Below are positions 7,078 to 57,636 of a DNA stretch of 64,000 nt, one piece after another (position 1 is the stretch's first letter; every line of letters starts with the position of its first letter). Position numbers and translations under genes: made by a program. The notes under the pieces are model-generated. The model did not search any database. It was not told where the DNA came from and saw only the letters and a list, made by a program, of their open reading frames with translations. The stretch is from Gemmatimonadota bacterium. GTDB taxonomy: Bacteria; Gemmatimonadota; Gemmatimonadetes; Gemmatimonadales; GWC2-71-9. Location of the stretch: NCBI GenBank assembly GCA_016720805.1, contig JADKJZ010000014.1, positions 516,904 through 580,903 of the forward strand, read 5' to 3'.

Positions 7078-7087
7078 TGATTTCAGT

Positions 7088-7102
7088 TGGCAGCAATCTT
7101 GC
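7088..7102 (+). promoter_or_regulatory. Candidate sigma-54 (-24/-12) promoter TGGCAGCAATCTTGC
   Basis: GG-N10-GC spacing is exact. The sequence is close to the TGGCACG-N4-TTGC consensus. It lies about 95 nt upstream of the protease ATG at 7198. Confidence 0.5.
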
Positions 7103-7197
7103 CCGATACTTGGCCAGTAACGCCGCGGCCCTTGGTCGTTCCGAGGATCCGCCTCTGGGGGCTACCCCGCTGGTTTCAGGCTGGAGTCACATTGATC

Positions 7198-11475: not shown

Positions 11476-11496
11476 CGCCACGAACCGTCATGGCAG

Positions 11497-11532
11497 ATGG
11501 GGCCGCCGATCTTCCAAGATCGGCGGCCCCAT
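11497..11532. terminator. Perfect inverted repeat (bidirectional terminator candidate) between convergent genes
   Basis: The sequence is ATGGGGCCGCCGATCTT-cc-AAGATCGGCGGCCCCAT. It lies between the protease stop (11475) and the stop of the convergent gene (11565). Confidence 0.6.
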
Positions 11533-11564
11533 TCGCATGCTGGTTGCCCGAGGGTGCTGGTCGG

Positions 11565-23642: not shown

Positions 23643-23776
23643 TTAGGTGCTAGTCGTTGGTCGTTAGTTGTTAGGTGGCAATGAGCGAAGGGTGAAATGG
23701 GGCCGAAATCGGCGACCATTTCACCCTTTTTCTCGTAGCCTGTAGTGACCAACAACTAAGGACTAACGACTCACGA
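23643..23776. repeat. Nested hairpin element: heptamer-periodic outer arms (TAGTCGT/TGGTCGT/TAGTTGT) around an intrinsic-terminator-like inner stem
   Basis: The inner stem AAGGGTGAAATGG (23688-23700) pairs with CCATTTCACCCTT (23716-23728) and is followed by a T-tract. The outer left arm 23651-23678 is about 80 percent complementary to 23742-23770. The element abuts both convergent stop codons. Confidence 0.8.
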
Positions 23777-32515: not shown

Positions 32516-32532
32516 CGCGACGGGCAACAGAA

Positions 32533-32610
32533 CGTGAAAGGTGAAACGTGAAAGGTGAAACGGGGGCCAATGTGGGCCTCCGTTTCACCTCTTACGTTTT
32601 ACGCTTCTCG
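32533..32610. repeat. Hairpin element with (SGTGAAA)x4 left arm, a GC inner stem and a degenerate complementary right arm
   Basis: The left side reads CGTGAAA GGTGAAA CGTGAAA GGTGAAA CGGGGGCC, the loop is aatgt, and the right side reads GGGCCTCCG TTTCACC TCTTACG TTTTACG CTTCTCG. It lies between convergent stops at 32515 and 32613. Confidence 0.8.
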
Positions 32611-33760: not shown

Positions 33761-35152
33761 ATGCTGTTCAACAGTTTCATCTTCCTCTTCGCCTTCCTGC
33801 CAGTCACCTACGTGGTGTTCTGGCTGCTGGGGACGGCCCGCAGTCGCTATGTCTGGCTCACCATCACCGGATATGTCTTCTACGGCTACTGGGACTGGCG
33901 CTTCTGCTTCCTGATGGCCTTCTCGACGCTGGTCAGTTATACGGCCGGACTCGGGATGCTCCGCTTCGATGCCGACCCGCGCAAGCGGAAGCTCTGCCTG
34001 ATTGTCCCGATCACGGTCGACCTGGCGCTGCTCGGCTTCTTCAAATATGCAAACTTCGGGCTCGGCGCGTTCCGGGACGCGATGCACGCCACCGGCCTCG
34101 ACGTCTCGGTCCCCCATCTCGACGTGATCCTCCCGATCGGCATCTCCTTCTACACCTTCCACACCATCAGCTACATCGTCGATGCCTATCGGCGCCAGAT
34201 CACCCCGACGAGGAACCTCTGGGAGTTCGCGTCGTACGTCTCCCTCTTCTCGCAGCTGGTCGCCGGACCGATTGTCCGCTTCCGGCAGATCGAGGCAGAC
34301 CTCGAGGCGCTCGGCACCGCGAGCCGGACCCACTGGCTCCGGACCGGCGTGTCGATCTTCGTGGTCGGGCTGGTCGAGAAGGTGATCCTCGCCGACACCC
34401 TGGCCGCGTTCGTCGACCCGGTGCTGGCGCAGTGGGGCACGGCCTCGACCGGCGCCATCTGGCTCGCGATGCTCGGCTACACCTTTCAGCTCTACTTCGA
34501 CTTCTGCGGCTACAGCAGCATGGCCGTCGGCCTCGGCTACATGTTCGGCCTGCGCATCCCGCGCAACTTCAACTCGCCCTACAAGAGCCTCGACCCGTCG
34601 GAATTCTGGAATCGTTGGCACATCTCGCTCTCGACCTGCATGCGAGACTACCTCTACATCCCCTTCGGCGGCAATCGCGGTGGCACGCTCAAGACCTACC
34701 GCAACCTGCTGCTGACGATGCTCATCGGCGGGCTGTGGCACGGCGCGAACTGGACGTTCATTGTCTGGGGACTCTACCACGGGGTATTGCTCGGCGCCCA
34801 TCGTGCCGCCGGCCGGGGCTGGGATGCCCTGCCGGCGCGCCTTCGCCAGGTCGGCATGGTGTTCGCCGCGCTGATCGGCTGGGTCTTCTTCCGGGCGCTC
34901 GACATGCCGATGGCCATCGGGATGCTGCGGAAGATGTTTTCCCCGGTGGCCGGTGTCTCCGTGCCGCAGGCCTCGTGGGCCGCCGCCGCGGTCGTCATCG
35001 CCGCGATCTGGGGGATGTACGGCCCCAACATCTACGACCTCGATTACCGGCCGCGCTGGTGGAAGAACGCCGTGCTGGCCACCGCGTTCGGCGTGGCGCT
35101 GGCGTTGATTGCGGGGGATCGGAGCAGTCCGTTCCTCTACTTCCAGTTCTAG
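33761..35152 (+). CDS. MBOAT family O-acyltransferase (AlgI/DltB-like)
   Basis: MLFNSFIFLFAFLPV N-terminus. Conserved FWNRWHISLSTCMRDYLYIPFGGNRGG and GLWHGANW motifs. Confidence 0.9.
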   Translation: MLFNSFIFLFAFLPVTYVVFWLLGTARSRYVWLTITGYVFYGYWDWRFCFLMAFSTLVSYTAGLGMLRFDADPRKRKLCLIVPITVDLALLGFFKYANFGLGAFRDAMHATGLDVSVPHLDVILPIGISFYTFHTISYIVDAYRRQITPTRNLWEFASYVSLFSQLVAGPIVRFRQIEADLEALGTASRTHWLRTGVSIFVVGLVEKVILADTLAAFVDPVLAQWGTASTGAIWLAMLGYTFQLYFDFCGYSSMAVGLGYMFGLRIPRNFNSPYKSLDPSEFWNRWHISLSTCMRDYLYIPFGGNRGGTLKTYRNLLLTMLIGGLWHGANWTFIVWGLYHGVLLGAHRAAGRGWDALPARLRQVGMVFAALIGWVFFRALDMPMAIGMLRKMFSPVAGVSVPQASWAAAAVVIAAIWGMYGPNIYDLDYRPRWWKNAVLATAFGVALALIAGDRSSPFLYFQF

Positions 35153-35263
35153 GATGATGGATGATGGATGATGGATGATGGACCAACAGCGAAGGGGAGC
35201 GTCGACTGGGGATCGGCGCTCCCCTTCGCCGTTCGCCCATCCATCATCCATCATCCATCATCC
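35151..35263. repeat. Nested hairpin element: (GGATGAT)x4 ... inner 13-bp GC stem ... (ATCATCC)x3.5
   Basis: Left arm at 35152-35179. The inner stem GCGAAGGGGAGCG (35189-35201) pairs with CGCTCCCCTTCGC (35217-35229). Right arm at 35239-35263. The element lies between convergent stops at 35152 and 35269. Confidence 0.9.
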
Positions 35264-35268
35264 GCCGT

Positions 35269-38210: not shown

Positions 38211-38796
38211 GATCAATCCGGTGGTGAGGAAGCGCCAAATATGGGTGGCCGACCGGAGCAACCCAAGGTCCCCCCGTCGCAGCCGTCGGAAAGATTTTGA
38301 CCGTTCGTGGCCATTTTCGGGGGAGCGGCGGACCGGGCGCGCGGAGGGGAAAAATCCCCCGCTCGCGGCCGGTTGGAGGATGTCGTCGCGTGCGCGGCGC
38401 GCACCGCGCGGCATCGGCGCGTTCGGGAGGTGATGCACGTGGTGGTGCGTGACGTGCACTCGCGCGTGTCGCGGGAAGCCGCATTTCACAAGGCTTTGCG
38501 GTCGACGCGCACACAGTGCGACATCGCGACGTGCCGGTGCGCGCGATGCAACACACGCCGCGCGCGCATCGTGATGCCGCCCCGTGGCGCCGCGTTCTCG
38601 GCGCCAAATCCATGTGGACGATCGGTGGAAGCCGATGCCCCGGTGAGGGTTCCGGGTTGCGGGGGGTATTGCGCCCGGAAGGAAAATTTTGATCTTGTAT
38701 ATGCCGACGCTACTCCGCCGACAGGAGCGGGTCGTCGCCGTGAGTACCGCACGTACGTCGAGTGCTCACGAATTTTTTAATCCTCAGGGAGGCTCC

Positions 38797-39000
38797 ATGG
38801 CTACCAAGAAGGCTGCGAAGAAGGCCGCGAAGCGGCCGGCGAAGAAGGCCGCGAAGAAGGCTGCCAAGCGTCCGGCGAAGAAGGCCGCGAAGAAGGGCGC
38901 GAAGAAGGCTGCCAAGCGTCCGGCGAAGAAGGCTGCCAAGAAGGCCGCCAAGCGTCCGGCGAAGAAGGCCGCCAAGAAGGCCGCGAAGAAGGCTGCGTAA
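38797..39000 (+). CDS. Histone H1-like / AlgP-like Lys-Ala-Pro repeat basic protein
   Basis: GGAGG lies 5 nt upstream of the ATG. The product is 67 aa, MATKKAAKKAAKRPAKKAAKKAAKRPAKK.. A hairpin terminator lies downstream. Confidence 0.7.
   Translation: MATKKAAKKAAKRPAKKAAKKAAKRPAKKAAKKGAKKAAKRPAKKAAKKAAKRPAKKAAKKAAKKAA
38806..38997 (+). repeat. In-frame 36-bp (12-aa, KKAAKKAAKRPA) tandem repeat, about 5 copies
   Basis: Read directly from the coding sequence of the H1-like gene. Confidence 0.8.
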
Positions 39001-39041
39001 GCAGTCGCTCTCGCGGCCTTCGCCGTGAGAGGCAGCTAAGT

Positions 39042-39076
39042 AAAAAGGGCCGGCACGTTGCCGGCCCTATGCTTTT
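39042..39076. terminator. Rho-independent terminator (A-tract, GGGCCGGCA-cgt-TGCCGGCCC, T-tract)
   Basis: The 9-bp perfect GC stem (39047-39067) is flanked by AAAAA on the 5' side and TATGCTTTT on the 3' side. It lies between convergent genes. Confidence 0.75.
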
Positions 39077-41194: not shown

Positions 41195-41818
41195 ATGCGC
41201 GAGAATCTAGCCGCCACCCTCCGTCTCCTGCTCGTGACCGACGACGCCCTCCTCGGCGCGCGCGACCCGATCGCCGTGGCGCGGGCGGCCGTCGCGGGAG
41301 GCGTGACCGCCATCCAGCTCCGGCTCAAGCACGCCTCCGATCGTGATCTGCTCGCGCTGGCCCGTCACCTGGTGGCGTTGCTCCCCGTCCCGATCTTCGT
41401 CAACGACCGACTCGACATCGCCCTCGCCGCCGGCGCGGCGGGCGCCCATCTTGGCGCGGACGACCTTCCCCCAGCCCGAGCTCGGCGCATTGTTCCGGCT
41501 GGCTTCCTCCTCGGAGCGTCGGTGGGCAGTCCCGCCGAGATCGAGCGCGGTCTCGCCGCCGACTATTGGGGAATCGGGCCCCTGCACGGCACCAGCACGA
41601 AGGGCGACGCGGGGGACGCGCTTGGACTTGATGGCGCCGCGACGCTGCTGGCGCAGGCAGGCACGCGGCCATGCGTGGTTATCGGTGGCGTGCTGCCGGA
41701 CGATGTCGCGCCGGCGCTCGCGGCAGGCTTTGCGGGCGTCGCGGTCGTGCGCGGAATTCTGGGGGGGGAGGATGTCGAGGAGAGGGCGAGGAAGTACCGG
41801 ATGATGGATGATGGATGA
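41195..41818 (+). CDS. thiE: Thiamine-phosphate synthase
   Basis: 207 aa. Motifs LLLVTD.., VTAIQLRLK, FVNDRLDIALAAGA.GAHLG and VVIGGV. The last 5 codons (MMDDG) and the stop lie inside a GGATGAT array. Confidence 0.8.
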   Translation: MRENLAATLRLLLVTDDALLGARDPIAVARAAVAGGVTAIQLRLKHASDRDLLALARHLVALLPVPIFVNDRLDIALAAGAAGAHLGADDLPPARARRIVPAGFLLGASVGSPAEIERGLAADYWGIGPLHGTSTKGDAGDALGLDGAATLLAQAGTRPCVVIGGVLPDDVAPALAAGFAGVAVVRGILGGEDVEERARKYRMMDDG

Positions 41819-41865
41819 TGGATAATTGCAGAATGCTGTCATCCATCATCGATCATCGATCATCC
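41799..41865. repeat. Hairpin element (GGATGAT)x3-GGATAAT / loop / CATCC-ATCATCG-ATCATCG-ATCATCC
   Basis: Read directly. The left arm contains the thiE stop (41816-41818). The right arm contains the mltG stop (41860-41862). Confidence 0.9.
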
Positions 41866-47511: not shown

Positions 47512-49470
47512 ATGAGCAGGGATCAGAGTTGGTTGGAACGGACGTTGTACGGGACCGGGACGCCGTCGCCCCTGGCGCAGCTACTCGCGAAGCACGAGGG
47601 GTTGGCGTGGGCGAGCGTTGCGGGGTTGCTCCTCTTCACCAGCTGGATCGTCGAGCGGACCGCGATCTTCGCACCGTGGGTCGCACTCGCAGGCTACGGC
47701 CTCGTCGGCGTGATTGGCGGCCGCCAGCCGGTGCTGCACTTGGTGCGCGCGCTGCGGCGTGGCGCATTCCATCTCGACATCGACTTCCTGATGGTCGTCG
47801 CCGCGATTGGTGCAGCGAGTGTCGGCGCGTGGGCCGAGGGCGCCTTCCTCCTCTTTCTCTTTGCCCTGGCGAACGCACTCGAGGAGTACGCCCTCGACCG
47901 CGCGCGGTCGGCGATCCGCAACCTCGCCGACTTGGCGCCGGCGCAGGCGCGCCTGCTGCGCGATGGCGTCGAGGTGGAGATCCCGGTCGAGCAGGTGCGC
48001 ATCGGTGATGTGCTGGTGGTTCGTCCCGCCGAGCGGTTGCCGGCCGATGGCACGGTACGGACGGGACGATCGGCCATCAATCAGGCCCCGATCACCGGGG
48101 AATCGGTGCCGGTGGAGAAGGAGCCGGGCGATGAGGTCTTCGCCGGCACGGTGAACGGCGATGGCGCCCTCGAGATCACGGCGACGCGCGCGGTCGGTGA
48201 CCGTACACTCGACCGCGTCATCCGGCTGGTCGAGGAGGCGCAGGCGGCGAAGGCACCGGTCCAGCGCATCACCGAGCGGTTCGAGCGGATCTTCGTCCCG
48301 GCCGTCGTGATTGGCGACATCCTGCTGATCGTGGTGCCGGGGCTGATGGGGTGGATGCCGTGGGGCGAGAGCCTCTATCGCGGCATGACGGTACTGGTCG
48401 CGGCCTCGCCCTGCGCGATTGCGCTCGGCGCACCGGCCGCGATGCTGGCCGGCATCGCGCAAGCGGCAAAGCACGGCGTGCTGCTGAAGGGCGGCGCCTC
48501 CCTCGAGGCGCTCGCCACGGTGCGCGCCGTCGCCTTCGACAAGACCGGGACGCTGACGGCGGGGCGCCCCGAGGTGACCGACGTGACCCCGATGCCCGGC
48601 GTCACCATCCCTGAGCTGCTTGGGATGGCAGCGGCGGTCGAAGCGCGGTCACAGCATCCGCTGGCCCAGGCGGTGGTGCGTCGTGCGGCAACGGACGGGG
48701 TCACGTTGCCCGCCGCCGGTGAGCTGCAGAGCATGACGGCGCGGGGCGTGCGGGCCGACGTGGCCGGCCTGCCGGTGCTGATTGGGAGTGCGCGGCTCTG
48801 GACCGATGACGGGATCGCCTTCCCGGCCGAGATCACGGCGGCGCTGGAGGAAATGAGTGCCCGCGGCCGCAGCATGATGATCGTTCGCCATGGCGAGCGT
48901 TGGCTCGGCGTGCTGGGCCTGCTCGATCCGCCGCGGCCCTCGGTGCATGCCACGCTGGAGCGATTGCGGGCGTTGCACCTCAAACCGCTGGTGATGCTCA
49001 CCGGCGATCACCGCGGCGTCGGCGAGGCGATCGGTCGCGAGGTCGGTGTCGATGAGGTGCGCGCTGATCTGCTCCCCGAGGACAAGGTCACCGCCATCCA
49101 CGAACTGATGGCGGCGCACGGGACCATGGTGATGGTGGGCGACGGCGTGAATGACGCGCCGGCGCTCGCCGCGTCGACGGTGGGGATCGCGATGGGAGGC
49201 GCCGGCACCGCCGCCGCGCTCGAGACCGCCGACGCCGCCCTCATGGGCGACGACCTGGCCCGCCTCCCCTGGGCGATCGGCCTGGCCCGGGCCACGCGGC
49301 GGATCGTTTTCCAGAACCTGGCGATCGCCGGCGGCGTCATGCTGACGCTGCTGATCCTGGCGGCGAGCGGGATCCTCACGATCGGCCCCGCAGTGGTCGG
49401 GCACGAGGGGAGCACGCTGGTGGTGATTGCGAATGCGTTGCGGCTGCTGGCGTACAAGGATGATGGATGA
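47512..49470 (+). CDS. Heavy-metal P1B-type ATPase without an N-terminal metal-binding domain (SPC / HEGST motifs; P1B-4-like, Co/Zn-type)
   Basis: GGAG lies upstream of the ATG. Motifs TGES, SPC in the TM region (VAASPCAIALG), DKTGTLT, GDGVNDAPAL and HEGSTLVV. The last 3 codons and the stop lie in a GGATGAT array. Confidence 0.85.
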   Translation: MSRDQSWLERTLYGTGTPSPLAQLLAKHEGLAWASVAGLLLFTSWIVERTAIFAPWVALAGYGLVGVIGGRQPVLHLVRALRRGAFHLDIDFLMVVAAIGAASVGAWAEGAFLLFLFALANALEEYALDRARSAIRNLADLAPAQARLLRDGVEVEIPVEQVRIGDVLVVRPAERLPADGTVRTGRSAINQAPITGESVPVEKEPGDEVFAGTVNGDGALEITATRAVGDRTLDRVIRLVEEAQAAKAPVQRITERFERIFVPAVVIGDILLIVVPGLMGWMPWGESLYRGMTVLVAASPCAIALGAPAAMLAGIAQAAKHGVLLKGGASLEALATVRAVAFDKTGTLTAGRPEVTDVTPMPGVTIPELLGMAAAVEARSQHPLAQAVVRRAATDGVTLPAAGELQSMTARGVRADVAGLPVLIGSARLWTDDGIAFPAEITAALEEMSARGRSMMIVRHGERWLGVLGLLDPPRPSVHATLERLRALHLKPLVMLTGDHRGVGEAIGREVGVDEVRADLLPEDKVTAIHELMAAHGTMVMVGDGVNDAPALAASTVGIAMGGAGTAAALETADAALMGDDLARLPWAIGLARATRRIVFQNLAIAGGVMLTLLILAASGILTIGPAVVGHEGSTLVVIANALRLLAYKDDG

Positions 49471-49542
49471 TGGATGATGGACGATGGATGATGGATGATG
49501 GATGACGGCTCCGATCGATCCATCATCCATCATCCATCATCC
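49458..49542. repeat. Hairpin element (GGATGAT-type)x7 / 12-nt loop / TCC(ATCATCC)x3
   Basis: Read directly. It lies at a co-directional junction between the ATPase and ADH genes. Confidence 0.9.
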
Positions 49543-49604
49543 TACTTCCCCTCGCCCTATTCTCCGGCCATCCTTCCCGCTCCCCGTTCCGCCCGGAGTC
49601 CCAC

Positions 49605-50720
49605 ATGCCACAGCTCGGCGAAACCGTTCGTGCCGCGGTCATCGATACGCCCAATGCGCCGCTCCGCGTGGTGAGCTTCGGGACTCCCACCCTCGCGCCC
49701 GGCTCCGCCCTGCTGCGCACCTCCTACTCCGAAGTGTGCGGCACCGATGTGCACATCTGGCGGGGCCGCATGCCGGGGGTGCCGTTCCCGATCATTCCCG
49801 GGCACGTCAGCGTCGGTGTCCTCGCGGCGGTCAGCGGGAAACTTCTTGATATTCACGGTACCCGATTCAAGGAAGGCGACCTGGTCACCTTTCTGGACGT
49901 GCACGGCACCTGCGGCAACTGCTGGTACTGCCTCGTGGCGAAGCAGACCACGCGCTGTCCGCATCGGCGCGTGTACGGCATCACCTACGGCGTCGACGAC
50001 GGCCTGTTGGGTGGATGGTCAGAGGCCATCTACATGAAGCCCGGCCTCAAGATGATTCGCATCCCGACCGGCCTCCGGCCGGAGACCTTCATCGGCGGCG
50101 GTTGCGGCCTGGTGACCGCCGTCCACGTGATGGACCGCGCCGACGTGCAACTCGGGCAGACGGTGGTCGTGCTCGGTGTCGGTCCGGTGGGGCAGTCGAT
50201 CATCGCCCTCTCGGCACAGGCCGGAGCAGGGCAGGTCATCGGCATCGGTGAGCCGGTCGATCGTCTGGCCTACGCCAAGCGGATGGGAGCGACGCATGTC
50301 ATCGGACTCGACTTGCCGCCCGCCGATCGGGTGGCTGAAGTGCGCCGGATGACGCAGGGACGCGGGGCTGACATCGTGATCGAGGCGACGGGCGCCCCGG
50401 CCGCCGTGACGCAGGCACTCGACCTGGTCCGCGACGGTGGCCGCGTGGTGGTCTGTGGGCAGTACTCCGACCACGGCGACACCCCGCTCAATCCGCACCG
50501 GCAGATCAACCGGACCCATGTGGAGATCCGCGGCGTCTGGGGTTCCGACTACTCGCACTTCCACCGTGCCGTCGAATTCGCCACGCACTGGGGCGATCGG
50601 ATTCCGTGGGCCGAGCAGGTGTCCGGTCGCTACCCGCTGGAGCGGGTGCAGGAGGCGCTCGAAGCGGTCGAACAGCGCCGCGTGCTCAAGGCGCTGGTGG
50701 TGCCGGGCGCGTCGGTGTGA
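49605..50720 (+). CDS. Zinc-dependent alcohol dehydrogenase (MDR superfamily)
   Basis: Motifs CGTDVHIW, GHVSVG, CGNCWYC and GVGPVGQ. Confidence 0.85.
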   Translation: MPQLGETVRAAVIDTPNAPLRVVSFGTPTLAPGSALLRTSYSEVCGTDVHIWRGRMPGVPFPIIPGHVSVGVLAAVSGKLLDIHGTRFKEGDLVTFLDVHGTCGNCWYCLVAKQTTRCPHRRVYGITYGVDDGLLGGWSEAIYMKPGLKMIRIPTGLRPETFIGGGCGLVTAVHVMDRADVQLGQTVVVLGVGPVGQSIIALSAQAGAGQVIGIGEPVDRLAYAKRMGATHVIGLDLPPADRVAEVRRMTQGRGADIVIEATGAPAAVTQALDLVRDGGRVVVCGQYSDHGDTPLNPHRQINRTHVEIRGVWGSDYSHFHRAVEFATHWGDRIPWAEQVSGRYPLERVQEALEAVEQRRVLKALVVPGASV

Positions 50721-52636
50721 CCTCGGCGGACCATTCCCGTCCTGCCACCGAAGCGCTCGCAGCGTGGTTCCTCGGCCCCGGCGGCGAGAACGCGGCGGAG
50801 CTCGAAGCGCTCGCCGCCGAGGCCATCCGCGACCATGTCGACTGGCGGCGTGCCTTCCATCCGGAGGACGGTGCCGTCCTCTCGCCCGAGCGGATCGCCG
50901 CGCCAGGTGCGGAGGCTGCGCGCGCCCTGCTCGCGCGCGAGTTCCGATCGCTGCTGGTCGAGCTCAAGCGCGATGTCCCCTTCTACAGCGGGCGCTACCT
51001 CGGCCACATGCTCGGCGAGCAGACGCTCGCGGCGCAGCTGGGGTACCTCGCGGCGATGCTCTACAATCCGAACAACGTCGCGGCCGAAGTGTCACCGGTC
51101 ACGTCGCGGCTCGAGGTGGAGGTCGCAGAGCAGCTCGCGGCGATGATCGGCTACGCGGCCGATACGTCATGGGGCCATCTGACCTCCGGTGGCACGATCG
51201 CGAATTTCGAGGCGCTGTGGATCGCCCGGAGCATTCGCTATCACGGCGTGGCACTGGCGCTGGCCGCCGCCGGCGCCGGGGTTTCGCTCATGATCCGGCT
51301 TCCCGACGGGGCGCGCCGCGACCTGCGCGACCTCTCGCTCTGGCAACTCCTCAATCTCGAGCCGGCCGACACGCTCGATGCCGACCGGGAACTGCGTCGG
51401 CTGCTTCCACCCGCCGAGGCGCGTGCGGCCCTCGACGCGCATTCGCTCGCCACGATCGGCTATCAGGACTACGCGCGCCAACTCTCGAGCGCGTATGGCG
51501 ACGCCTTGGCGCCAGGGGTGGTGCTGGTGGCCTCGACGGCGCATTACTCCTGGGAGAAGATCACCCGCGCGCTCGGCATCGGCGGACACTGCATGGTGGC
51601 GGTGCCCGTCGATGCGCACGCGCGGATGGACCCCGCCGCGCTCTGGAGCATCCTGCAGGAGTGCGCCGCGACGCGGACTCCGGTGCTCGCGCTGGTGAGT
51701 GTCTGCGGCAGCACGGAGGAGGGGGCGGTCGACCAGCTCGACCAGATCGGGGCGGTGCGCGAGCGCGCCGCGCGCGAGCTGGGGCTGACCTTCCACTGGC
51801 ACGCCGACGCTTGCTTCGGGGGCTACGCCGCCTCGGTGACGCGCGCGGCCGATGGCTCGCGCCGGCACGGCGAATCCATCCGCACCGCGACCGGGATCGC
51901 GTGGCCCAGTGACGCGTGGGTCGCCGCGATGACGGCGCTCGAGCAGACCGACTCGGTCACCATCGATCCGCACAAGCTCGGCTACATCCCCTATCCGGCC
52001 GGCGCGTTCCTGCTGCGTGACCGACGCGCGCGCGCACTCGTGGCGATCGACCCGCCATACCTCACGCAGTCGACCCACGATGCGCATGCTGACGAGCGCT
52101 TCCTGGGGCGGTGGATTCTCGAGGGGTCGAAGCCCGGGGCCGCGGCGGCTGCGGTGTGGCTGTCCCATCGCGTGGTGCCGCTCGACGAGCGCGGGTATGG
52201 CACCATCATCGCACGCGCCGTGGCCGGCGCACACCGCCTTCACCAGGCGCTCGACGTGCCAGGCAGCGTGCGCTTGCCACTGCCGGATCTCTCGGTGGTC
52301 AACTGGGTGATGACGAGCCCAGGGGTGCACGGTCTCGTGGCACTCAATGCGATGAACGAGTCGATCTATCGCCAGTTGTCGCCGGGTGACGAGCCGCCGC
52401 GCTACTTCATCACGCGGACGCGACTCGCCTCACCATCGGCCGACGGCATCGTCCTGCCGCTGCTGGGGGCGCTGGGGGTGTCGGAGATGGAGTGGCGACG
52501 CCACGGCCTGGTGGTGCTGCGCGCGGTCGTGATGACGCCGTACCTCGTCGATCCGCCGGGGACGGCCGATCACTGCGCCGGGCTGGTGGCCGCGCTGCAC
52601 GAAGCCACCCTGCGCGCGGCGGCCGAGTTCAGCTGA
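50717..52636 (+). CDS. Group II pyridoxal-dependent decarboxylase (aromatic-amino-acid/tyrosine decarboxylase-like)
   Basis: The GTG start overlaps the ADH stop (GTGA). Motifs LTSGGTIANFEALW and the PLP-lysine motif DPHKLGYIPYPAG. Confidence 0.75.
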   Translation: MTSADHSRPATEALAAWFLGPGGENAAELEALAAEAIRDHVDWRRAFHPEDGAVLSPERIAAPGAEAARALLAREFRSLLVELKRDVPFYSGRYLGHMLGEQTLAAQLGYLAAMLYNPNNVAAEVSPVTSRLEVEVAEQLAAMIGYAADTSWGHLTSGGTIANFEALWIARSIRYHGVALALAAAGAGVSLMIRLPDGARRDLRDLSLWQLLNLEPADTLDADRELRRLLPPAEARAALDAHSLATIGYQDYARQLSSAYGDALAPGVVLVASTAHYSWEKITRALGIGGHCMVAVPVDAHARMDPAALWSILQECAATRTPVLALVSVCGSTEEGAVDQLDQIGAVRERAARELGLTFHWHADACFGGYAASVTRAADGSRRHGESIRTATGIAWPSDAWVAAMTALEQTDSVTIDPHKLGYIPYPAGAFLLRDRRARALVAIDPPYLTQSTHDAHADERFLGRWILEGSKPGAAAAAVWLSHRVVPLDERGYGTIIARAVAGAHRLHQALDVPGSVRLPLPDLSVVNWVMTSPGVHGLVALNAMNESIYRQLSPGDEPPRYFITRTRLASPSADGIVLPLLGALGVSEMEWRRHGLVVLRAVVMTPYLVDPPGTADHCAGLVAALHEATLRAAAEFS

Positions 52637-54038
52637 AGAGCGGGCGCGGCTCGCTGGGCCCGACGCCGAGCCAGGCGCAGATGACCGGGTAGAGGTCGAC
52701 GGTGCGCAGCGGGCCGGCCGGGAGGGGTCGGTTTGACCATGCCGGCGTGAGCATGTGACCCGCGATCAACGAGCCGTGACCGGACTTGTGCTCCGGATAC
52801 TCCCACGCCTCGCGGAAGTCCCACCCCTCGGCTGCGGCGATCACGAGGTCGCCGGTGCGCGGCGCCTGGAATTGATCGAGCAGCGAGACCGGCCCATCGG
52901 GGAACGGGCCGTCAATCGTGCGCGCCAACCACTCGCGATGATCATGCGTCGCATCGGCGCCGATCACCAGGGGATCACCGCTGACCCGCGTGTAGTGAAT
53001 CGCCTCGCCATCGCGGCGAAGCGTCGCCTCGCCCGCGTCGGATGCCACCCGCACGCCACCGCCAGCTTCCGCTCCCGCCACCAGTGCGATCCCCGCTTCC
53101 GCGGTGAGGGCGGCGACGGCGTCGCCTTGCACGCCGAGCGCACCAGACGCGCGGAGCTGTGCGAGCGGATGCCGTGCGGCGCGTGGGATGTTGGGCTCGG
53201 CATAGACGGCGGCCTGCGCGTTGCCCGCCACCATCACCGCGACCTGCGGGTCCCGAGTCCAGAGGACCGGATGCGCCAGCGTCCGCGCGCCGCGCCGCCG
53301 GAACCAGGTCGCGAGGTCGAGGTGGTGGTGCACCGGCGCCGCGCCGTGGTCGCTCACGATCATGATCAGCGTGTCGTCGAGCCGACCCAGCGCGCGCAGC
53401 CGCTCGGTGAGCGCACCGATCGTGGCGTCGACCTTCCGGAGCGAGTCGAGCACGCGCGGCGCGTCGGGAGTGGCCGCGTGGGTGTGGCCGTCGACGGCGG
53501 GGAACTGCGCAAAGCAGAACCGCCAGTCGCCGCCGACCTGCGCCAGGAGCTCGGCGGCAACGGCGTCGTCGCCCGGCTGGTGGTTCTCGGTGTAGTGCGA
53601 GACGGTGCCCCAGAACTTGCGGGCGCCCTGGATCCGGTCGGCGTCGACCGAGAGGCCGCGGGTGATCATCGAGAAGATCGCGATGCTCTCGGGCACCAGC
53701 TCGAAGATGGTCGCCACGTCGGGCGCGATGTCGCGGTTCAGGTGCCCCGCCTGCCAGCCGCAGTAGCTGCGCACGGCGTCGCGATCGGCCCACCAGCGGC
53801 CGGTGTAGGCCTCGCGATCGAGCCAGCGGATCGAGGGGACGTTGCAACGCCCGGGCAATGCGCCGGTCAGGAAGGGGAGGTACGCCACCGACGTGGTCGA
53901 GGGAAACGCCGTCGCGGCCCGCGACCGGGTACCACCCGCCGTCAGGGCGGCAAGGTGCGGAAGGTGGCCGGCGGCGAGTTCGCGTTCGGCAACATCGGCC
54001 CGGAGGCCATCAACCAGCAGGAGGAGGACGCGCTTCAC
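52629..54038 (-). CDS. Alkaline-phosphatase superfamily enzyme (type I phosphodiesterase/nucleotide pyrophosphatase-like)
   Basis: Motifs VLLLLVDGLRAD, FPSTTS and VSDHGA. The start is GTG at 54038 (preferred) or GTG at 54113; the latter would translate the heptamer array. Confidence 0.7.
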   Translation of the reverse strand: MKRVLLLLVDGLRADVAERELAAGHLPHLAALTAGGTRSRAATAFPSTTSVAYLPFLTGALPGRCNVPSIRWLDREAYTGRWWADRDAVRSYCGWQAGHLNRDIAPDVATIFELVPESIAIFSMITRGLSVDADRIQGARKFWGTVSHYTENHQPGDDAVAAELLAQVGGDWRFCFAQFPAVDGHTHAATPDAPRVLDSLRKVDATIGALTERLRALGRLDDTLIMIVSDHGAAPVHHHLDLATWFRRRGARTLAHPVLWTRDPQVAVMVAGNAQAAVYAEPNIPRAARHPLAQLRASGALGVQGDAVAALTAEAGIALVAGAEAGGGVRVASDAGEATLRRDGEAIHYTRVSGDPLVIGADATHDHREWLARTIDGPFPDGPVSLLDQFQAPRTGDLVIAAAEGWDFREAWEYPEHKSGHGSLIAGHMLTPAWSNRPLPAGPLRTVDLYPVICAWLGVGPSEPRPLFS

Positions 54039-54053: not shown

Positions 54054-54109
54054 GCGGGGAGCGGGGAGCGAGAAGCGAGGGGTGAGGGGTGAGGGGTGAG
54101 GGGTGAGGG
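54054..54109. repeat. Direct heptamer array GCGGGGA x2, GCGAGAA, GCGAGGG, GTGAGGG x4
   Basis: Read directly. It lies in the divergent region between the AP-superfamily gene and the Nramp gene. No complementary arm was found nearby. Confidence 0.85.
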
Positions 54110-54157
54110 GCACGTTGGCCGGGTATACTCCAGCACTCCCCTGAAACAGGATGTTGT

Positions 54158-55471
54158 ATGGCGACTGAGCCCCCGATCGTGGAACGTCCGAGTGACGCGG
54201 CGCGATGGGCCCGTGGTGGCCCCCGTGCCGTGCGTCGGTTCTGGCACTCCCTCGGGCCGGGGCTGATTACCGGGGCCGCCGATGACGATCCATCCGGCAT
54301 CGCCACCTACTCGATTGCCGGCGCCCGCTTCGGCACCTCGCTGCTCTGGATGTCGGTGCTCACCTGGCCGTTGATGGCAGCGGTGCAGACGATGTGCGCC
54401 CGAATCGGCATGGTGACCGGCCATGGCCTGGCGGCGGCGCTGCAACAGAAGTTTCCCCGCCCCGTGCTGCTGGTGATGTGTGTCGGGTTGATGATTGCCA
54501 ACACCATCAACATCGGCGCCGATCTCGCCGGGATGGCCGACGCCGCCGAGCTGATCACCGGGATCAACTCCCATTTGCTCGTCGTGGTCTTCGGTGGCCT
54601 GATCGCGTGGGCGACGGTCCAGCTGCGCTACGCCGCCTTTGCGCGCATCCTCAAGTGGCTCGCCCTGGTGCTTGGCGTCTACATCATCGCGGCGATCGAT
54701 CTCAAGCCGGTCTGGAGCTCGGTGCTGCACGACACCTTCCTCCCCTCCGGCCTCGATTCGCGCGAGGCGTGGTCCACCGTGGTCGCGATCCTCGGCACGA
54801 CGATCTCGCCCTACCTCTTCTTCTGGCAGGCGTCGCAGGAAGTCGAGGAAGAGAAGGCCGCCGGCAAGGTGACGGAGGAAGCCCGGCGCGGCGCGACGGC
54901 GGCGCAGCTCCGCGCCCGGAAGCTCGACGTCGGCTTCGGCACCTTCTTCTCCAACCTCGCGATGTTCTTCATCATCCTGACGACGGCGCTGACCCTGCAC
55001 AAGGCGGGCATTACCGAACTCGCGACCGGCGCCGAGGTGGCGAAGGCGCTCGAGCCGCTCGCCGGGCGCTTCTCGTCGTGGCTGTACGCCATCGGCGTGA
55101 TCGGCACCGGCGCGCTGGCGATTCCCACGCTGGCCGGCTCCGCGGCGTACGCCTTCGCCGAGACGCTTGGCTGGCAGCAAGGGATGGACGAGGACTTCCG
55201 TCGCGCCGAGCCGTTCTACGCCGTGATCGTCGTGGCGCTGCTGATCGGCGTCCTGCTCGATTTCGCCAACGTCTCGCCCGTCAAGGCGCTGTACTGGACC
55301 GCCGTCCTCAACGGCGTGCTGGCGCCCTTCCTGCTCACGGCGATTCTGATGGTCGCCGGCAACAAGGCCATCATGCAGGGGCAGCCGTCGTCGCGGCTCG
55401 GGATGGTGACGGTCGGCATCACGACGGTGGTGATGTTTGGGGCGGCGATTGCGATGTTTGTGGCGAGATGA
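54158..55471 (+). CDS. mntH: Nramp family divalent metal (Mn2+/Fe2+) transporter
   Basis: GPGLITGAADDDPSGIATYS motif. 437 aa and polytopic. Confidence 0.85.
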   Translation: MATEPPIVERPSDAARWARGGPRAVRRFWHSLGPGLITGAADDDPSGIATYSIAGARFGTSLLWMSVLTWPLMAAVQTMCARIGMVTGHGLAAALQQKFPRPVLLVMCVGLMIANTINIGADLAGMADAAELITGINSHLLVVVFGGLIAWATVQLRYAAFARILKWLALVLGVYIIAAIDLKPVWSSVLHDTFLPSGLDSREAWSTVVAILGTTISPYLFFWQASQEVEEEKAAGKVTEEARRGATAAQLRARKLDVGFGTFFSNLAMFFIILTTALTLHKAGITELATGAEVAKALEPLAGRFSSWLYAIGVIGTGALAIPTLAGSAAYAFAETLGWQQGMDEDFRRAEPFYAVIVVALLIGVLLDFANVSPVKALYWTAVLNGVLAPFLLTAILMVAGNKAIMQGQPSSRLGMVTVGITTVVMFGAAIAMFVAR

Positions 55472-55628
55472 TGGATGATGGATGATGGATGATGGATGAT
55501 GGATGGCGGGAAAGTGAGCCGGCATCGGCCATGGCGAGCGGTCCAGCATCCCCGATCCATCATCTATCATCCATCATCCATCATCCATCATCCATCATCC
55601 ATCATCCATCATCCATCATCCATCATCC
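55466..55628. repeat. Largest hairpin element: (GGATGAT-type)x5.5 / about 50-nt spacer / (ATCATCC)x10
   Basis: The left arm (55466-55507) includes the Nramp stop at 55469-55471. The right arm (55559-55628) is 10 near-perfect units. Confidence 0.9.
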
Positions 55629-55728
55629 GCTGTCAGGAGAGTAGATTTCCGCATGCGCTCTCTCTGGTCCGACACCGACGCCGCCCGCTGCACGCACGCC
55701 GCTGGATTTCCGGGTCTACTCGTCCCGA

Positions 55729-57636
55729 TTGCTGGGGCAGGATCCCGCCCTGGTGCTGCACGGCGGCGGCAACACCTCCGTGAAGGACACCGTCCCCGAT
55801 CTCTTCGGCGACGAGGTCCCGGTCCTCCACATCAAGGGAAGCGGCTGGGACCTCGCGACCATCGAGGCCGCGGGTTTTGCCCCCGTGCGCCTCGACGTCC
55901 TCCGGCGGATGGCGGACCTTCCCGTCCTCTCCGATACGGACATGGTGCGTGCGCAGCGCGCGGCAATGCTCGACCCGGGTGCGCCGACGCCCTCGGTCGA
56001 GGCCATTCTCCATGCCATCATCCCCTTCACGTACGTCGACCACACCCACGCCGACGCCGTGGTGGCGGTGAGCAACTCGCCAGGCGGCGAGGCGGCCATC
56101 CGCGCCATCTATGGACCTCGCGTGCTGGTGGTGCCCTACGTGATGCCGGGCTTCGTGCTCGCGCGTGCGGTGCGCGAGATGACCACGGTGACGGACTGGA
56201 GCGCGGTCGACGGGATCGTCCTCCTCAATCACGGCGTCTTCTCGTTCGGTGACGACGCGAAGAGCAGCTACGAGCGGATGATCGCGCTGGTCTCGCGCGC
56301 GGAGGAGTACCTCGCGTCGAAGGGCGCCTCGCTGGTGCCGCCGAGCACGGCCCAGGGGGCAACGCTCGCGCATGAGGAACTCCTCCGGCTGGCCGCGCTG
56401 CGTCGCGCGGTTGGCCTCGCCAAGGGCACGCCGGTGATCGCGGCGCTTGACCGCGCCGATGATTCCGTCGCCTTCGCCTCGCGCGCCGACGTGGCCCAGG
56501 TCGCCACGCGCGGTCCGCTCACGCCGGACCACGTGATTCGCACCAAGCCGCTGGCGCTGGTGGCGAGTGGTGACTGGGAGACGGCACTTCAGGGGTATGC
56601 CGAGCGGTACCGCGCCTACTTCGGCCGCCATGCCACGCCGGCGCTCACCTGTCTCGATCCGGCCCCGCGCTGGGTCATCTGGCCGGGCGTCGGCTTCGTG
56701 GCGATCGGCGCCTCGGTGAAGGATGCCGCGATCGTGACCGACCTGGCCCGGCACACCGCGCGCGCCATCGGCTGGGGTGAGCAGTTGGGTGGCTGGACAC
56801 CACTCCCCGAGGCCGACCTCTTCGCCGTGGAGTATTGGGAGCTCGAACAGACCAAGTTACGGCAGGGTGGCGCACCGCCGTCGATGCAGGGGAAGGTGGC
56901 GCTGGTGACCGGAGCGGCGAGCGGGATCGGGCGCGCCGTGGCGCTGGCGCTGCACGCAGAGGGGGCGGCGGTCCTCGCGACCGACATCAATCCCGAGGTC
57001 ACCGCCCTCTCGCGGGGTGGGTCACTCGTGGGTTGGGTGGCCGATGCGACCGACGCGGCCGCGATGGCAGGCGCGATCGCGGAATGCGTCCGCCGATTCG
57101 GCGGCCTCGACCACCTGGTGAGCAACGCGGGGATTTTTTCGGCGGGCGCGCGGATCGAACAGCTCGACGACGCACGCTGGGCCGAGAGCCTGCAGCTCAA
57201 CCTCACCAGCCACATGACCTTGCTCCGGAGCGCCGTTCCGTTCCTGCGCCACGGCTTCGAGCCGAGCGTGGTGATCGTCGGGTCGAAGAACGTCCCGGCG
57301 CCGGGTCCTGGCGCGGCGGCGTATTCGGTGGCCAAGGCTGGGCTCGCCCAGCTGGCGCGGGTCGCCGCCCTCGAACTGGGCACGGACGGCATCCGCATCA
57401 ACACCGTCCACCCGCATCTGGTGGTCGACACCGCGCTCTGGACTCCGGAAGTGCTGGCCTCGCGGGCCCAGTCGTACGGCCTCACCACCGAGGACTACAT
57501 CCGCAACAACCTCCTCGGCGTCGAGATCACCACGCGCGACGTCTCGAACGCGGTGCTCGCGTTGCTGGGGCCGACCTTTGCGAAGACGACCGGCGCGCAG
57601 ATTCCGATCGACGGCGGCAGCGACCGCGTGGTGTAG
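55729..57636 (+). CDS. Bifunctional class II aldolase / short-chain dehydrogenase (rhamnulose-1-phosphate aldolase/alcohol dehydrogenase-like)
   Basis: N-terminal motif LLGQDPALVLHGGGNTSVK. SDR half with VTGAASGIGRA and YSVAKAG. The annotated TTG start is doubtful (see finding at 55653-55731). Confidence 0.8.
   Translation: MLGQDPALVLHGGGNTSVKDTVPDLFGDEVPVLHIKGSGWDLATIEAAGFAPVRLDVLRRMADLPVLSDTDMVRAQRAAMLDPGAPTPSVEAILHAIIPFTYVDHTHADAVVAVSNSPGGEAAIRAIYGPRVLVVPYVMPGFVLARAVREMTTVTDWSAVDGIVLLNHGVFSFGDDAKSSYERMIALVSRAEEYLASKGASLVPPSTAQGATLAHEELLRLAALRRAVGLAKGTPVIAALDRADDSVAFASRADVAQVATRGPLTPDHVIRTKPLALVASGDWETALQGYAERYRAYFGRHATPALTCLDPAPRWVIWPGVGFVAIGASVKDAAIVTDLARHTARAIGWGEQLGGWTPLPEADLFAVEYWELEQTKLRQGGAPPSMQGKVALVTGAASGIGRAVALALHAEGAAVLATDINPEVTALSRGGSLVGWVADATDAAAMAGAIAECVRRFGGLDHLVSNAGIFSAGARIEQLDDARWAESLQLNLTSHMTLLRSAVPFLRHGFEPSVVIVGSKNVPAPGPGAAAYSVAKAGLAQLARVAALELGTDGIRINTVHPHLVVDTALWTPEVLASRAQSYGLTTEDYIRNNLLGVEITTRDVSNAVLALLGPTFAKTTGAQIPIDGGSDRVV

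Follow-up and report, generated by a model that had tools for sequence, protein, structure and literature searches.

The 64,000-nt stretch of DNA analyzed here (the window) covers positions 516,904 to 580,903 of contig JADKJZ010000014.1 in the assembly GCA_016720805.1 of a Gemmatimonadota bacterium of the Gemmatimonadales and has a G+C content of ~69%. Two neighboring genes on its + strand frame the element studied. The first encodes a divalent-metal transporter of the Nramp family (MntH-like; 54158-55471; Pfam PF01566, E = 2.1e-77) with its nearest homologues in Gemmatimonadales. The second encodes a bifunctional class II aldolase/short-chain dehydrogenase (55653-57636; Pfam Aldolase_II and adh_short), and its homologues, from Gemmatimonadales or Gemmatimonadaceae, carry the name RhaD-like. 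Of the gap between the two genes (55472-55652), all but the last nucleotides are filled by a repeat element that reaches from 55466 to 55628 and in which two arrays of a 7-nt unit face each other. This element is one member of a dispersed, hypervariable family of hairpins placed at gene ends.

Two inverted heptanucleotide arrays fill the Nramp-to-RhaD gap

Arrays in the 64-kb window were called with Tandem Repeats Finder, which reported a left array at 55467-55505 (period 7, 5.6 copies, 100% matches, score 78) and a right array at 55555-55628 (period 7, 10.6 copies, 97% matches, score 141). The left arm (55466-55505, + strand; 5.6 units) is composed of AGATGAT, four GGATGAT units and a final GGATG, and the right arm (55555-55628, + strand; 10.6 units) of ATCC, ATCATCT and nine ATCATCC units. 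Between them lies a weakly structured spacer of 49 nt (55506-55554, + strand). A preliminary description of the locus had counted 5.5 and 10 units around a spacer of roughly 50 nt and had named the right arm the longest simple repeat of the window. Both statements agree with the array calls, since the score of 141 is the highest among the short-period arrays of the window and only a coding repeat with a period of 309 nt (8520-10628) is larger. The 14-mer GGATGATGGATGAT, allowing at most one mismatch, occurs 30 times in the window, with 0.01 occurrences expected.

The element is an inverted pair of heptanucleotide arrays that form one perfect stem of ~39 bp in the predicted RNA fold, with 43% G+C in the stem and a loop of at least 49 nt; the earlier view of the two arrays as a single inverted unit was therefore correct. 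The fold of 55440-55660 has a free energy of -116.8 kcal/mol (z = -6.6). Folds of the element range from -99 to -117 kcal/mol with z about -6.6, and the + and - strands are about equally stable. No U-tract follows the stem, the sequence behind it being GCTGTCAGGAG, and the whole window gave no match to Rfam 15 at the gathering threshold.

The arms also bear on the reading frames at both sides of the gap. The stop codon TGA of the Nramp gene (55469-55471) is supplied by the first repeat unit, AGATGAT, and the left arm as a whole holds a stop in each frame of the + strand. On the same strand the right arm contains no G, no start codon and no stop codon, and, being open in all frames, it yields a spurious SSIIHHP-type open reading frame (ORF; 55496-55783). 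Read on the - strand it becomes GGATGAT, with one TGA per unit in a frame that shifts every 7 nt, so that all frames are closed. The preliminary description had anticipated the repeat-borne Nramp stop, which the ORF 54158-55471 confirms, as well as the stop-free + strand with its spurious ORFs and the closed - strand of the right arm.

The start of the RhaD-like gene was set to the ATG at 55653 by means of an intact allele from another sample (MRSLWSDTDAARCRTPLDFRVYSS..., contig L001). The right arm thus ends 24 nt before the start codon. The estimate of about 25 nt given earlier was sound as to the closeness of arm and gene and wrong as to the exact start, which had been placed at 55654. The motif GGAGA (55636-55640, + strand), judged by its sequence the likely Shine-Dalgarno sequence of the gene, lies 12 nt before the ATG. 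Since only 24 nt separate arm and start codon, there is no room for a promoter, and the RhaD-like mRNA must have its 5' end within the element or be transcribed across it; the suggestion that the element is close enough to matter for this gene is thereby strengthened. In the window, one extra base near 55692 puts the gene out of frame after codon 13 (CGCTGCACGCACG, compared with CGCTGCCGCACG in the intact allele). The extra base reflects an assembly indel, or else the gene has recently become a pseudogene. A scan for consensus promoters and terminators over 45-64 kb gave no excess over shuffled sequences. The lone promoter-like match, in which GATGAT of the right arm would be the -10 box of a - strand promoter, is probably a coincidence and was set aside.

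Unit and loop are replaced at the same gap in relatives

The gap was compared with its counterparts in contigs of relatives. L001 matches the window over 3.6 kb with 97.5% identity. It shares the spacer and the variant units and differs in copy number, with 6.5 left and 6 right units compared with 5.5 and 10 in the window; its right arm consists of ATCATCT and five ATCATCC units. The more distant L188 (~85% nucleotide identity) keeps the gene order of the window. Its Nramp-to-RhaD gap contains TAG, GAC(GAGAAGC)2, a 33-nt spacer, (GCTTCTC)2 and GATCC|GCTGT and folds into a hairpin on the unit GCGAGAA/TTCTCGC, with -56 kcal/mol (z = -7.1). The L188 spacer has no homology to that of the window and cannot be aligned with it. 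In L130 and L131 (90-92% amino-acid identity), the same GCGAGAA array starts right after TAG. L128, a 77% relative, has no array past its Nramp gene, and a different gene follows; between the window spacer and the sequence after the L128 Nramp stop, the similarity is marginal (13 of 500 shuffles reach the score, p about 0.03). When 23 nt of the spacer were used to scan metagenomes, the three matches were chance hits within unrelated coding regions.

The boundaries of the arms are common to the window and L188 (left, TTTGTGGCGGG; right, GATCCGCTGT). The site of the left arm reads TTTGTGGCGGGGTAG in L188, L130, and L131. Compared with it, the left arm of the window is a 43-nt insertion (55466-55508) between the TGGCG copies 55461-55465 and 55504-55508, two codons before the older Nramp stop, and its excision in silico restores ...FVAGK-TGA. 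For the right arm, the L188 site reads CTCGATCCGCTGT, and the arm of the window is a 70-nt insertion between GATCC and GCTGT. Judged by these alignments, both arms are separate insertions, and inverted 7-mer arrays flush with the gene end appear to persist at the Nramp-to-RhaD gap while unit and loop are replaced.

The window holds a family of hairpins at gene ends

Four GGATGAT/ATCATCC pairs are present in the 64 kb, and in each of them the first unit contains or touches the stop codon of the gene upstream. Sister element D (35150-35265) lies between convergent genes, one for an MBOAT protein and one unknown, and contains TAG followed by (GGATGAT)4.4, an inner 17-bp hairpin and (ATCATCC)3.7; its fold reaches -89.6 kcal/mol (z = -11.5). 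Sister element E (41799-41865) separates two - strand genes, and the stop of the upstream, YceG/MltG-like one (41860-41862) falls in the first unit. Sister element F (49458-49542), with (GGATGAT)6.9, a 12-nt loop and (ATCATCC)3.6, is found between a P-type ATPase gene and a Zn-dependent alcohol dehydrogenase (ADH) gene, and the ATPase stop (49468-49470) falls within the left arm. The spacer of the element after the Nramp gene has no relation to the spacers of these sister elements.

At least three further hairpins or arrays in the window are built on other 7-mers, all adjoining gene ends. A (CGATGAT)8.6 array (826-885), self-complementary in six of seven positions, fills exactly the 60-nt gap between two convergent stop codons. 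Also between convergent genes, a degenerate hairpin with 7-nt periodicity (23645-23774; RGTCGTT-type left arm, complement on the right) encloses a classical terminator stem with its T-run (23690-23731) and folds with -77.4 kcal/mol (z = -10.2). A third hairpin, with arms of GTGAAAS heptamers (32531-32602), likewise separates convergent genes (-46.5 kcal/mol, z = -8.6). Over the long-hairpin folds of the window elements, z ranges from -3.5 to -11.5. In imperfect elements the + strand folds more stably than the - strand (-77.4 vs. -61.6 and -54.0 vs. -44.4 kcal/mol), the mismatches being G-U pairs on one strand. The membership of the Nramp-to-RhaD element in a window-wide family of shared design, proposed in the preliminary description, is thus supported by elements D, E, and F and by the hairpins on other 7-mers. 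The genes that flank the window elements have no functional theme in common.

Element D differs between close relatives. Strains that encode the same MBOAT protein and are 97.8-99.8% identical in nucleotide sequence have, in its place, TGA, (CRGCGAA)5, another inner hairpin and (TTCGCYG)4, and these alleles (L140, 2538-2650; L143, 1490-1545) have no GGATGAT arms. The spacer of element D in the window retains one CAGCGAA and two TTCGCCG units, so that the GGATGAT arms must have been added later, outside an older hairpin and on both its sides. At element F, the haplotype of L132-L134, whose ADH is 100% identical, has a different, divergent upstream gene and no array; its homology to the window begins at 49545, ~3 nt beyond the right edge of the element (49542). 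L128 is without the ADH and pyridoxal phosphate (PLP)-decarboxylase block (window 49545-52640), and behind the stop of its ATPase gene a (GCGAACR)5 array takes up the whole of a 41-nt convergent gap. In L141 (1822-2008) we observed a fold-back assembly chimera: having passed a heptamer hairpin, the contig goes on as the reverse complement of its own gene, and its loop has the opposite orientation to that of L140. Contigs assembled from short reads of this species often end inside heptamer arrays.

Direct arrays, outside any hairpin and belonging to the same repeat phenomenon, lie upstream of the Nramp gene (54054-54110, + strand) as (GCGGGGA)2.4 and (GAGGGGT)4.9. With five GGGG tracts and 3-nt loops, the (GAGGGGT)4.9 array (54077-54110) is a canonical G-quadruplex motif in the divergent promoter region of Nramp, and it stops ~15 nt short of a TATACT box conserved among relatives. 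The relatives have other units at this site, namely (GGTCGTA)3.5 in L004 (99% identical), (RGTCGTT)5 in L188, (GCGAGAA)3 in L130, and (GAGGACC)5 in L128. Were copy number or unit to change here, the -35 region of the Nramp promoter might change with them.

Distribution of the unit and order of the arms

An exact search for (GGATGAT)3 in species-representative genomes gave at least 120 loci. Among the matches listed are many Gemmatimonadota, with several contigs from single metagenome-assembled genomes (MAGs) of this phylum, and also Acidobacteria, Phycisphaerae, Verrucomicrobia, Bacteroidota, Chloroflexi, and others. The 916 kb of loci fetched from these matches contain 316 perfect 7-mer arrays of at least 19 nt, and 13 pairs of neighboring arrays are complementary and inverted. 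All 13 belong to high-G+C genomes (Gemmatimonadota, Acidobacteria, Phycisphaeraceae, and Pyrinomonadaceae). Complementary neighboring arrays were found for at least seven different unit families. The units GGATGAT, CRGCGAA, GCGAGAA, RGTCGTT/GGTCGTA, and GAGGGGT turn up repeatedly, at unrelated loci as well as across genomes of the clade; since a few units are shared by unrelated loci, independent slippage cannot explain their spread.

The order of the arms was counted with a lenient detector (arms within 200 nt) in the window and the 120 public loci listed. GGATGAT comes first in 17 of 17 inverted pairs and the reverse order does not occur, which has a probability of about 8e-6 if both orders are equally likely. 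When all loci were examined for long ORFs running into the arrays, random control positions in high-G+C DNA were also found in long ORFs (54%), and the exact arrays turned out to have variant units before them. The presence of GGATGAT in many phyla might suggest special conservation of this motif; this was rejected, since viral contigs gave 14 loci for it and 2 and 28 loci for two composition-matched permutations. In one Verrucomicrobia MAG (L010, 2757-2787), (ATCATCC)3 follows closely on an ATG and shares its frame with a signal peptide of twin-arginine-like type (MNPSSIIHHPSS...TRRDFF); this array may be translated, or the annotated start may be wrong.

A possible role at RNA 3' ends

The hairpin design is kept through a full change of sequence, and the placement is mostly where transcripts should end, that is in convergent gaps and in one case around a canonical terminator. 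Taken together, these points make a role at RNA 3' ends the most likely one, and we tentatively propose that the Nramp-to-RhaD hairpin is a terminator, an exonuclease barrier or a processing site, a proposal drawn from sequence comparison to which we give somewhat less than an even chance. A transcript from either strand would fold into the perfect ~39-bp stem, which would mark and protect the 3' end of the upstream message. It might do so by blocking 3'-to-5' exonucleases, by serving a double-strand RNase of the RNase III type as its site, or as a terminator that is weak or needs no factor. The stem would thereby uncouple Nramp from the unrelated RhaD-like gene downstream. For ribosomes coming from either side, the GGAUGAU arm would provide stops in three frames before the stem, and it could replace the last codons of a gene; the AUCAUCC arm, with neither AUG nor stop, would be harmless in front of a downstream start codon. 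The strict GGATGAT-first order is consistent with this translation-based argument. Arm lengths would drift by replication slippage. As the same few units occur at unrelated loci, arrays must also be copied between loci; for this spread, and for the mirror-image addition of arms, ectopic copying, strand switching templated by a hairpin and a further enzyme are candidates. Anti-Shine-Dalgarno mimicry, a resemblance to C/D boxes and a function as decoys for restriction sites (GGATG) were considered and dropped, as nothing supported them. A weaker RNA:DNA hybrid at a pyrimidine-rich 3' arm, which would promote termination, was likewise not counted as evidence, since by nearest-neighbour values the difference is small.

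Several observations weigh against a role at RNA 3' ends. The stem after the Nramp gene combines the absence of a U-tract with a loop of at least 49 nt, and the terminator scan identified no site at this element, with 7 sites in total compared with 5.1 ± 2.2 in shuffled sequences. Since ordinary compact terminator hairpins exist in the genome, heptamer hairpins are not required for termination. Element F is absent from L086, a contig of a Gemmatimonadales MAG that is syntenic with 44.8-50.7 kb of the window at ~73% identity, and the ATPase and ADH genes overlap there as ATGA. Because the flanking genes overlap without it, the elements are dispensable insertions and not conserved regulatory sites, and a strong terminator at F would silence the downstream gene of such a pair. 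Elements are absent at orthologous sites in other relatives, and DNA that is gained, lost and replaced this fast may equally well be neutral or selfish as functional. For the other units, the orientation relative to the nearest gene, as placed by a rough gene-caller, is a tendency with several exceptions, GAGGGGT upstream of Nramp among them. Finally, the stop-codon argument is inapplicable to the Xanthomonas unit GGGAATC, which holds no stop codon.

Alternative explanations

The arrays might instead be a neutral or selfish by-product, with no role in the cell, of heptamer-biased slippage, hairpin-templated strand switching and ectopic copying, which would create and mirror arrays wherever they are tolerated, for the most part at gene ends and in intergenic gaps. 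We regard this as unlikely, and it is nevertheless the alternative with most in its favor. The presence of elements varies between relatives at orthologous junctions, arm lengths vary independently, and unit and spacer have been swapped between strains whose flanks are 99.8% identical. Element F splits a gene pair that overlaps in L086, and arrays eat into the last codons of genes. Moreover, arrays of many 7-mers are common (the 316 in 916 kb among the matches listed), and control units in viral contigs are as frequent as GGATGAT. It has been put forward that the replicative polymerase is prone to slippage at a length of ~7 nt (Mrazek 2007, cited in PMC4692102 and PMC4679880). What slippage alone cannot do is put one 7-mer at many unrelated loci, and it does not explain the 17:0 arm order; nor would a by-product be expected to show a hairpin design that outlasts complete sequence change at the Nramp-to-RhaD gap, or arms flush with the stop codons on both sides of convergent gaps. 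Copying between loci could also be the work of a transposase encoded elsewhere that moves a palindromic element of the REP (repetitive extragenic palindrome)/REPIN or MITE (miniature inverted-repeat transposable element) type and prefers gene ends or hairpins. Several copies with identical arms, copies gained and lost between relatives and clean insertions flanked by short duplications (TGGCG at the left arm and ATCC at the right arm of the Nramp-to-RhaD element; GCC/GCC at element D) would suit such a mobile element, which we nevertheless consider improbable. The duplications TGGCG, ATCC, and GCC bracket single arms and not the whole element, the interior of element D is older local sequence, so that its arms were added separately on either side and not as one unit, and the internal sequences differ between copies, all of which departs from a MITE. 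Likewise, in place of the fixed 20-40-nt palindrome with a shared head motif that defines REP/REPIN sequences, such as GTAG in REP, the window has tandem 7-mers of variable arm length, and the loops of the four copies are unrelated. Nor has a transposase been linked to the arrays within the 64-kb window, in which no search aimed at one was made.

In another explanation, the arms are written in trans. A repeat-adding or template-switching activity would extend DNA 3' ends stalled at the base of a hairpin and would add the same G-rich heptamer genome-wide. The G-rich strand would then point inward on both sides, giving the 17:0 arm order, the two arm lengths would be independent, and a change of the favored unit over time would leave different units at the same site in relatives. 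The newest unit would be outermost, and in element D the CRGCGAA remnants are indeed enclosed by the GGATGAT arms. If true, this would be bacterial palindrome building by telomere-like addition; we think it quite improbable. A further alternative is a contingency locus akin to phase variation, in which slippage of the right arm 24 nt before the RhaD-like start would tune the translation or transcription of that gene. The right arm is indeed polymorphic (10 units in the window and 6 in L001), there is no promoter room between it and the ATG, and the arrays upstream of Nramp abut the conserved TATACT box and differ between strains. Most family members, however, are found in convergent gaps, which leave no gene to be tuned, and the associated genes are ordinary metabolic and housekeeping genes; PMC4692102 reached the same conclusion for Xanthomonas, and we judge this explanation very unlikely. 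An action at the level of DNA, through cruciforms, protein-binding sites or oriented Chi-like signals that face the break-prone center of the palindrome and limit degradation after hairpin cleavage, would draw on the arm order, since the G-rich strand ends 3' toward the center on both sides, and on structural breakpoints between strains that coincide with array edges. A G-rich strand with its 3' end toward the center is the orientation that an oriented recombination signal would need, going by what is known of Chi recognition. Such an action is highly unlikely, because many different units would each need recognition, and the more stable + strand RNA fold of imperfect elements weakly favors a constraint at the RNA level. 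Scarcely credible, finally, is an artefact in which the assembler made the arrays or their unequal lengths. Short-read contigs that break inside arrays, the fold-back chimera L141 and the single-base frameshift near the element in the window would be in keeping with one; yet the element was assembled through in the independent sample L001 with the same spacer and variant units, and similar arrays are present in isolate genomes and long-read assemblies of many taxa.

Other features of the window

Compact terminator-like hairpins are located at 39036-39070 and 11470-11535; one of the two reads GGGCCGGC...GCCGGCCC followed by UUUUU on the - strand, and the other is a 16-bp G+C-rich stem. The 309-nt coding repeat belongs to an ORF (7087-11475) of 1462 aa with an S8 subtilase domain, in which the repeat (103 aa) is present in 6.8 tandem copies with 78% identity. 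The antisense frame of this repeat (8520-10628) is nearly open, with one stop per repeat. A small ORF at 38795-39000 encodes a lysine/alanine repeat protein (MATKKAAKKAAKRPAKKAAKK...) that resembles the tails of histone H1 or AlgP and is built from 24/36-nt tandem repeats; a repeat of this type is also found in the Gemmatimonadota MAG L057.

Comparison with known systems

Dispersed 7-nt tandem repeats have been noted in bacteria since 2007, with neither a function nor a spreading mechanism established. The best studied are the GGGAATC repeats of Xanthomonas, which are 89-93% intergenic (Rehm et al. 2015, PMC4692102) and lie on average 28 nt from the upstream ORF and 160 nt from the next one (PMC4692102). 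Of 186 Xanthomonas repeat sites, 70 are in a convergent inverted arrangement, and most are transcribed (PMC4692102). No function was found either for these repeats or for the GGGGAYT repeats of Nostoc PCC 7120, and both are assigned to the "long SSR" class (long simple sequence repeats) of Mrazek et al. 2007 as described in PMC4692102. The likeness to the family studied here is close. In both cases tandem 7-nt units recur over many loci, ~90% intergenic and nearer to the end of the upstream ORF, with frequent convergent pairs able to form stem-loops. The arrays of close relatives differ widely in length and sequence, and the genes beside them have no common theme. The G-rich strand is the coding strand downstream of a gene and the non-coding strand upstream of a gene, so that the strict arm order is not new and parallels the Xanthomonas and Nostoc repeats. 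The differences are the phylum (Gemmatimonadota), the unit, the stop codons that are overlapped and supplied by the arrays, and the replacement of different units at one site. In addition, the Xanthomonas and Nostoc units can form G-quadruplexes and GGATGAT cannot. With runs of at most GG, it falls outside the G-quadruplex subclass of heptamers (at least four G-tracts of at least three G), to which the (GAGGGGT)4.9 array at 54077-54110 belongs.

The TAACTGA repeats occur in marine Beggiatoaceae, Cyanobacteria, and some Bacteroidetes (MacGregor 2015, PMC4679880). Like these and the cyanobacterial STRR (short tandemly repeated repetitive) heptamers, the present arrays are dispersed intergenic tandem 7-mers with a patchy distribution across phyla and no known spreading mechanism (PMC4679880). 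TAACTGA repeats are almost all direct and just upstream of start codons, with a proposed role in translation and one inverted case in 170 (PMC4679880), whereas the present arrays are inverted pairs at gene 3' ends.

With the REP/BIME (bacterial interspersed mosaic element; REPIN) sequences of proteobacteria the family shares palindromes at gene 3' ends, many copies per genome and gain and loss at the strain level. REP/BIME sequences are extragenic palindromes at gene 3' ends or between the genes of operons, and their RNA stem-loops stabilize the upstream mRNA. REP units have a fixed length of 20-40 nt, a conserved head motif and a dedicated RAYT transposase. Intrinsic terminators, too, place a stable hairpin right after the stop codon, with bidirectional placement between convergent genes; they are compact G+C-rich stem-loops with a U-tract, and the stem studied here departs from them with its 39 bp, 43% G+C, loop of at least 49 nt and missing U-tract. 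In phase-variable contingency loci, an SSR in a promoter, a 5' UTR or the 5' part of a coding region switches expression through changes in its length. The right arm is polymorphic (10 vs. 6 units) and lies 24 nt upstream of an ATG; most sister elements are situated between convergent genes. The long inverted arms of short tandem repeats, of unequal and variable length and around differing centers, recall by analogy, and with no homology implied, the Foldback (FB) transposons of Drosophila. FB transposons are eukaryotic and of kilobase size, and the transposition machinery is known in some copies.

The locus and its relatives offer clean natural comparisons, with one gap that holds different units and loops, near-identical strains with different alleles, separately inserted arms and a strict order of the arms. 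Such comparisons bear both on the effect of a hairpin on transcripts and on the way in which identical 7-mers reach unrelated loci. In practical terms, the arrays break short-read assemblies, produce fold-back chimeras and spurious ORFs and alter annotated gene ends.

The element combines all five features of heptanucleotide long SSRs, namely a near-perfect 7-nt array, proximity to the upstream ORF (here a distance of 0), dispersal, inverted pairs and variation between close relatives. The class itself, fast-changing and unexplained intergenic 7-base repeats in other bacteria, is already known. Its precedent in Xanthomonas and Nostoc, the copy-number polymorphism between strains, the replaced units and spacers at orthologous sites and the strict arm order all go beyond the preliminary description. 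New here are the stop codon supplied by a repeat, the two arms as insertions, and the replacement of unit and loop at orthologous sites between near-identical strains. The element is therefore best filed in the heptanucleotide long-SSR class, which it extends to Gemmatimonadota as a new phylum and to GGATGAT as a new unit.

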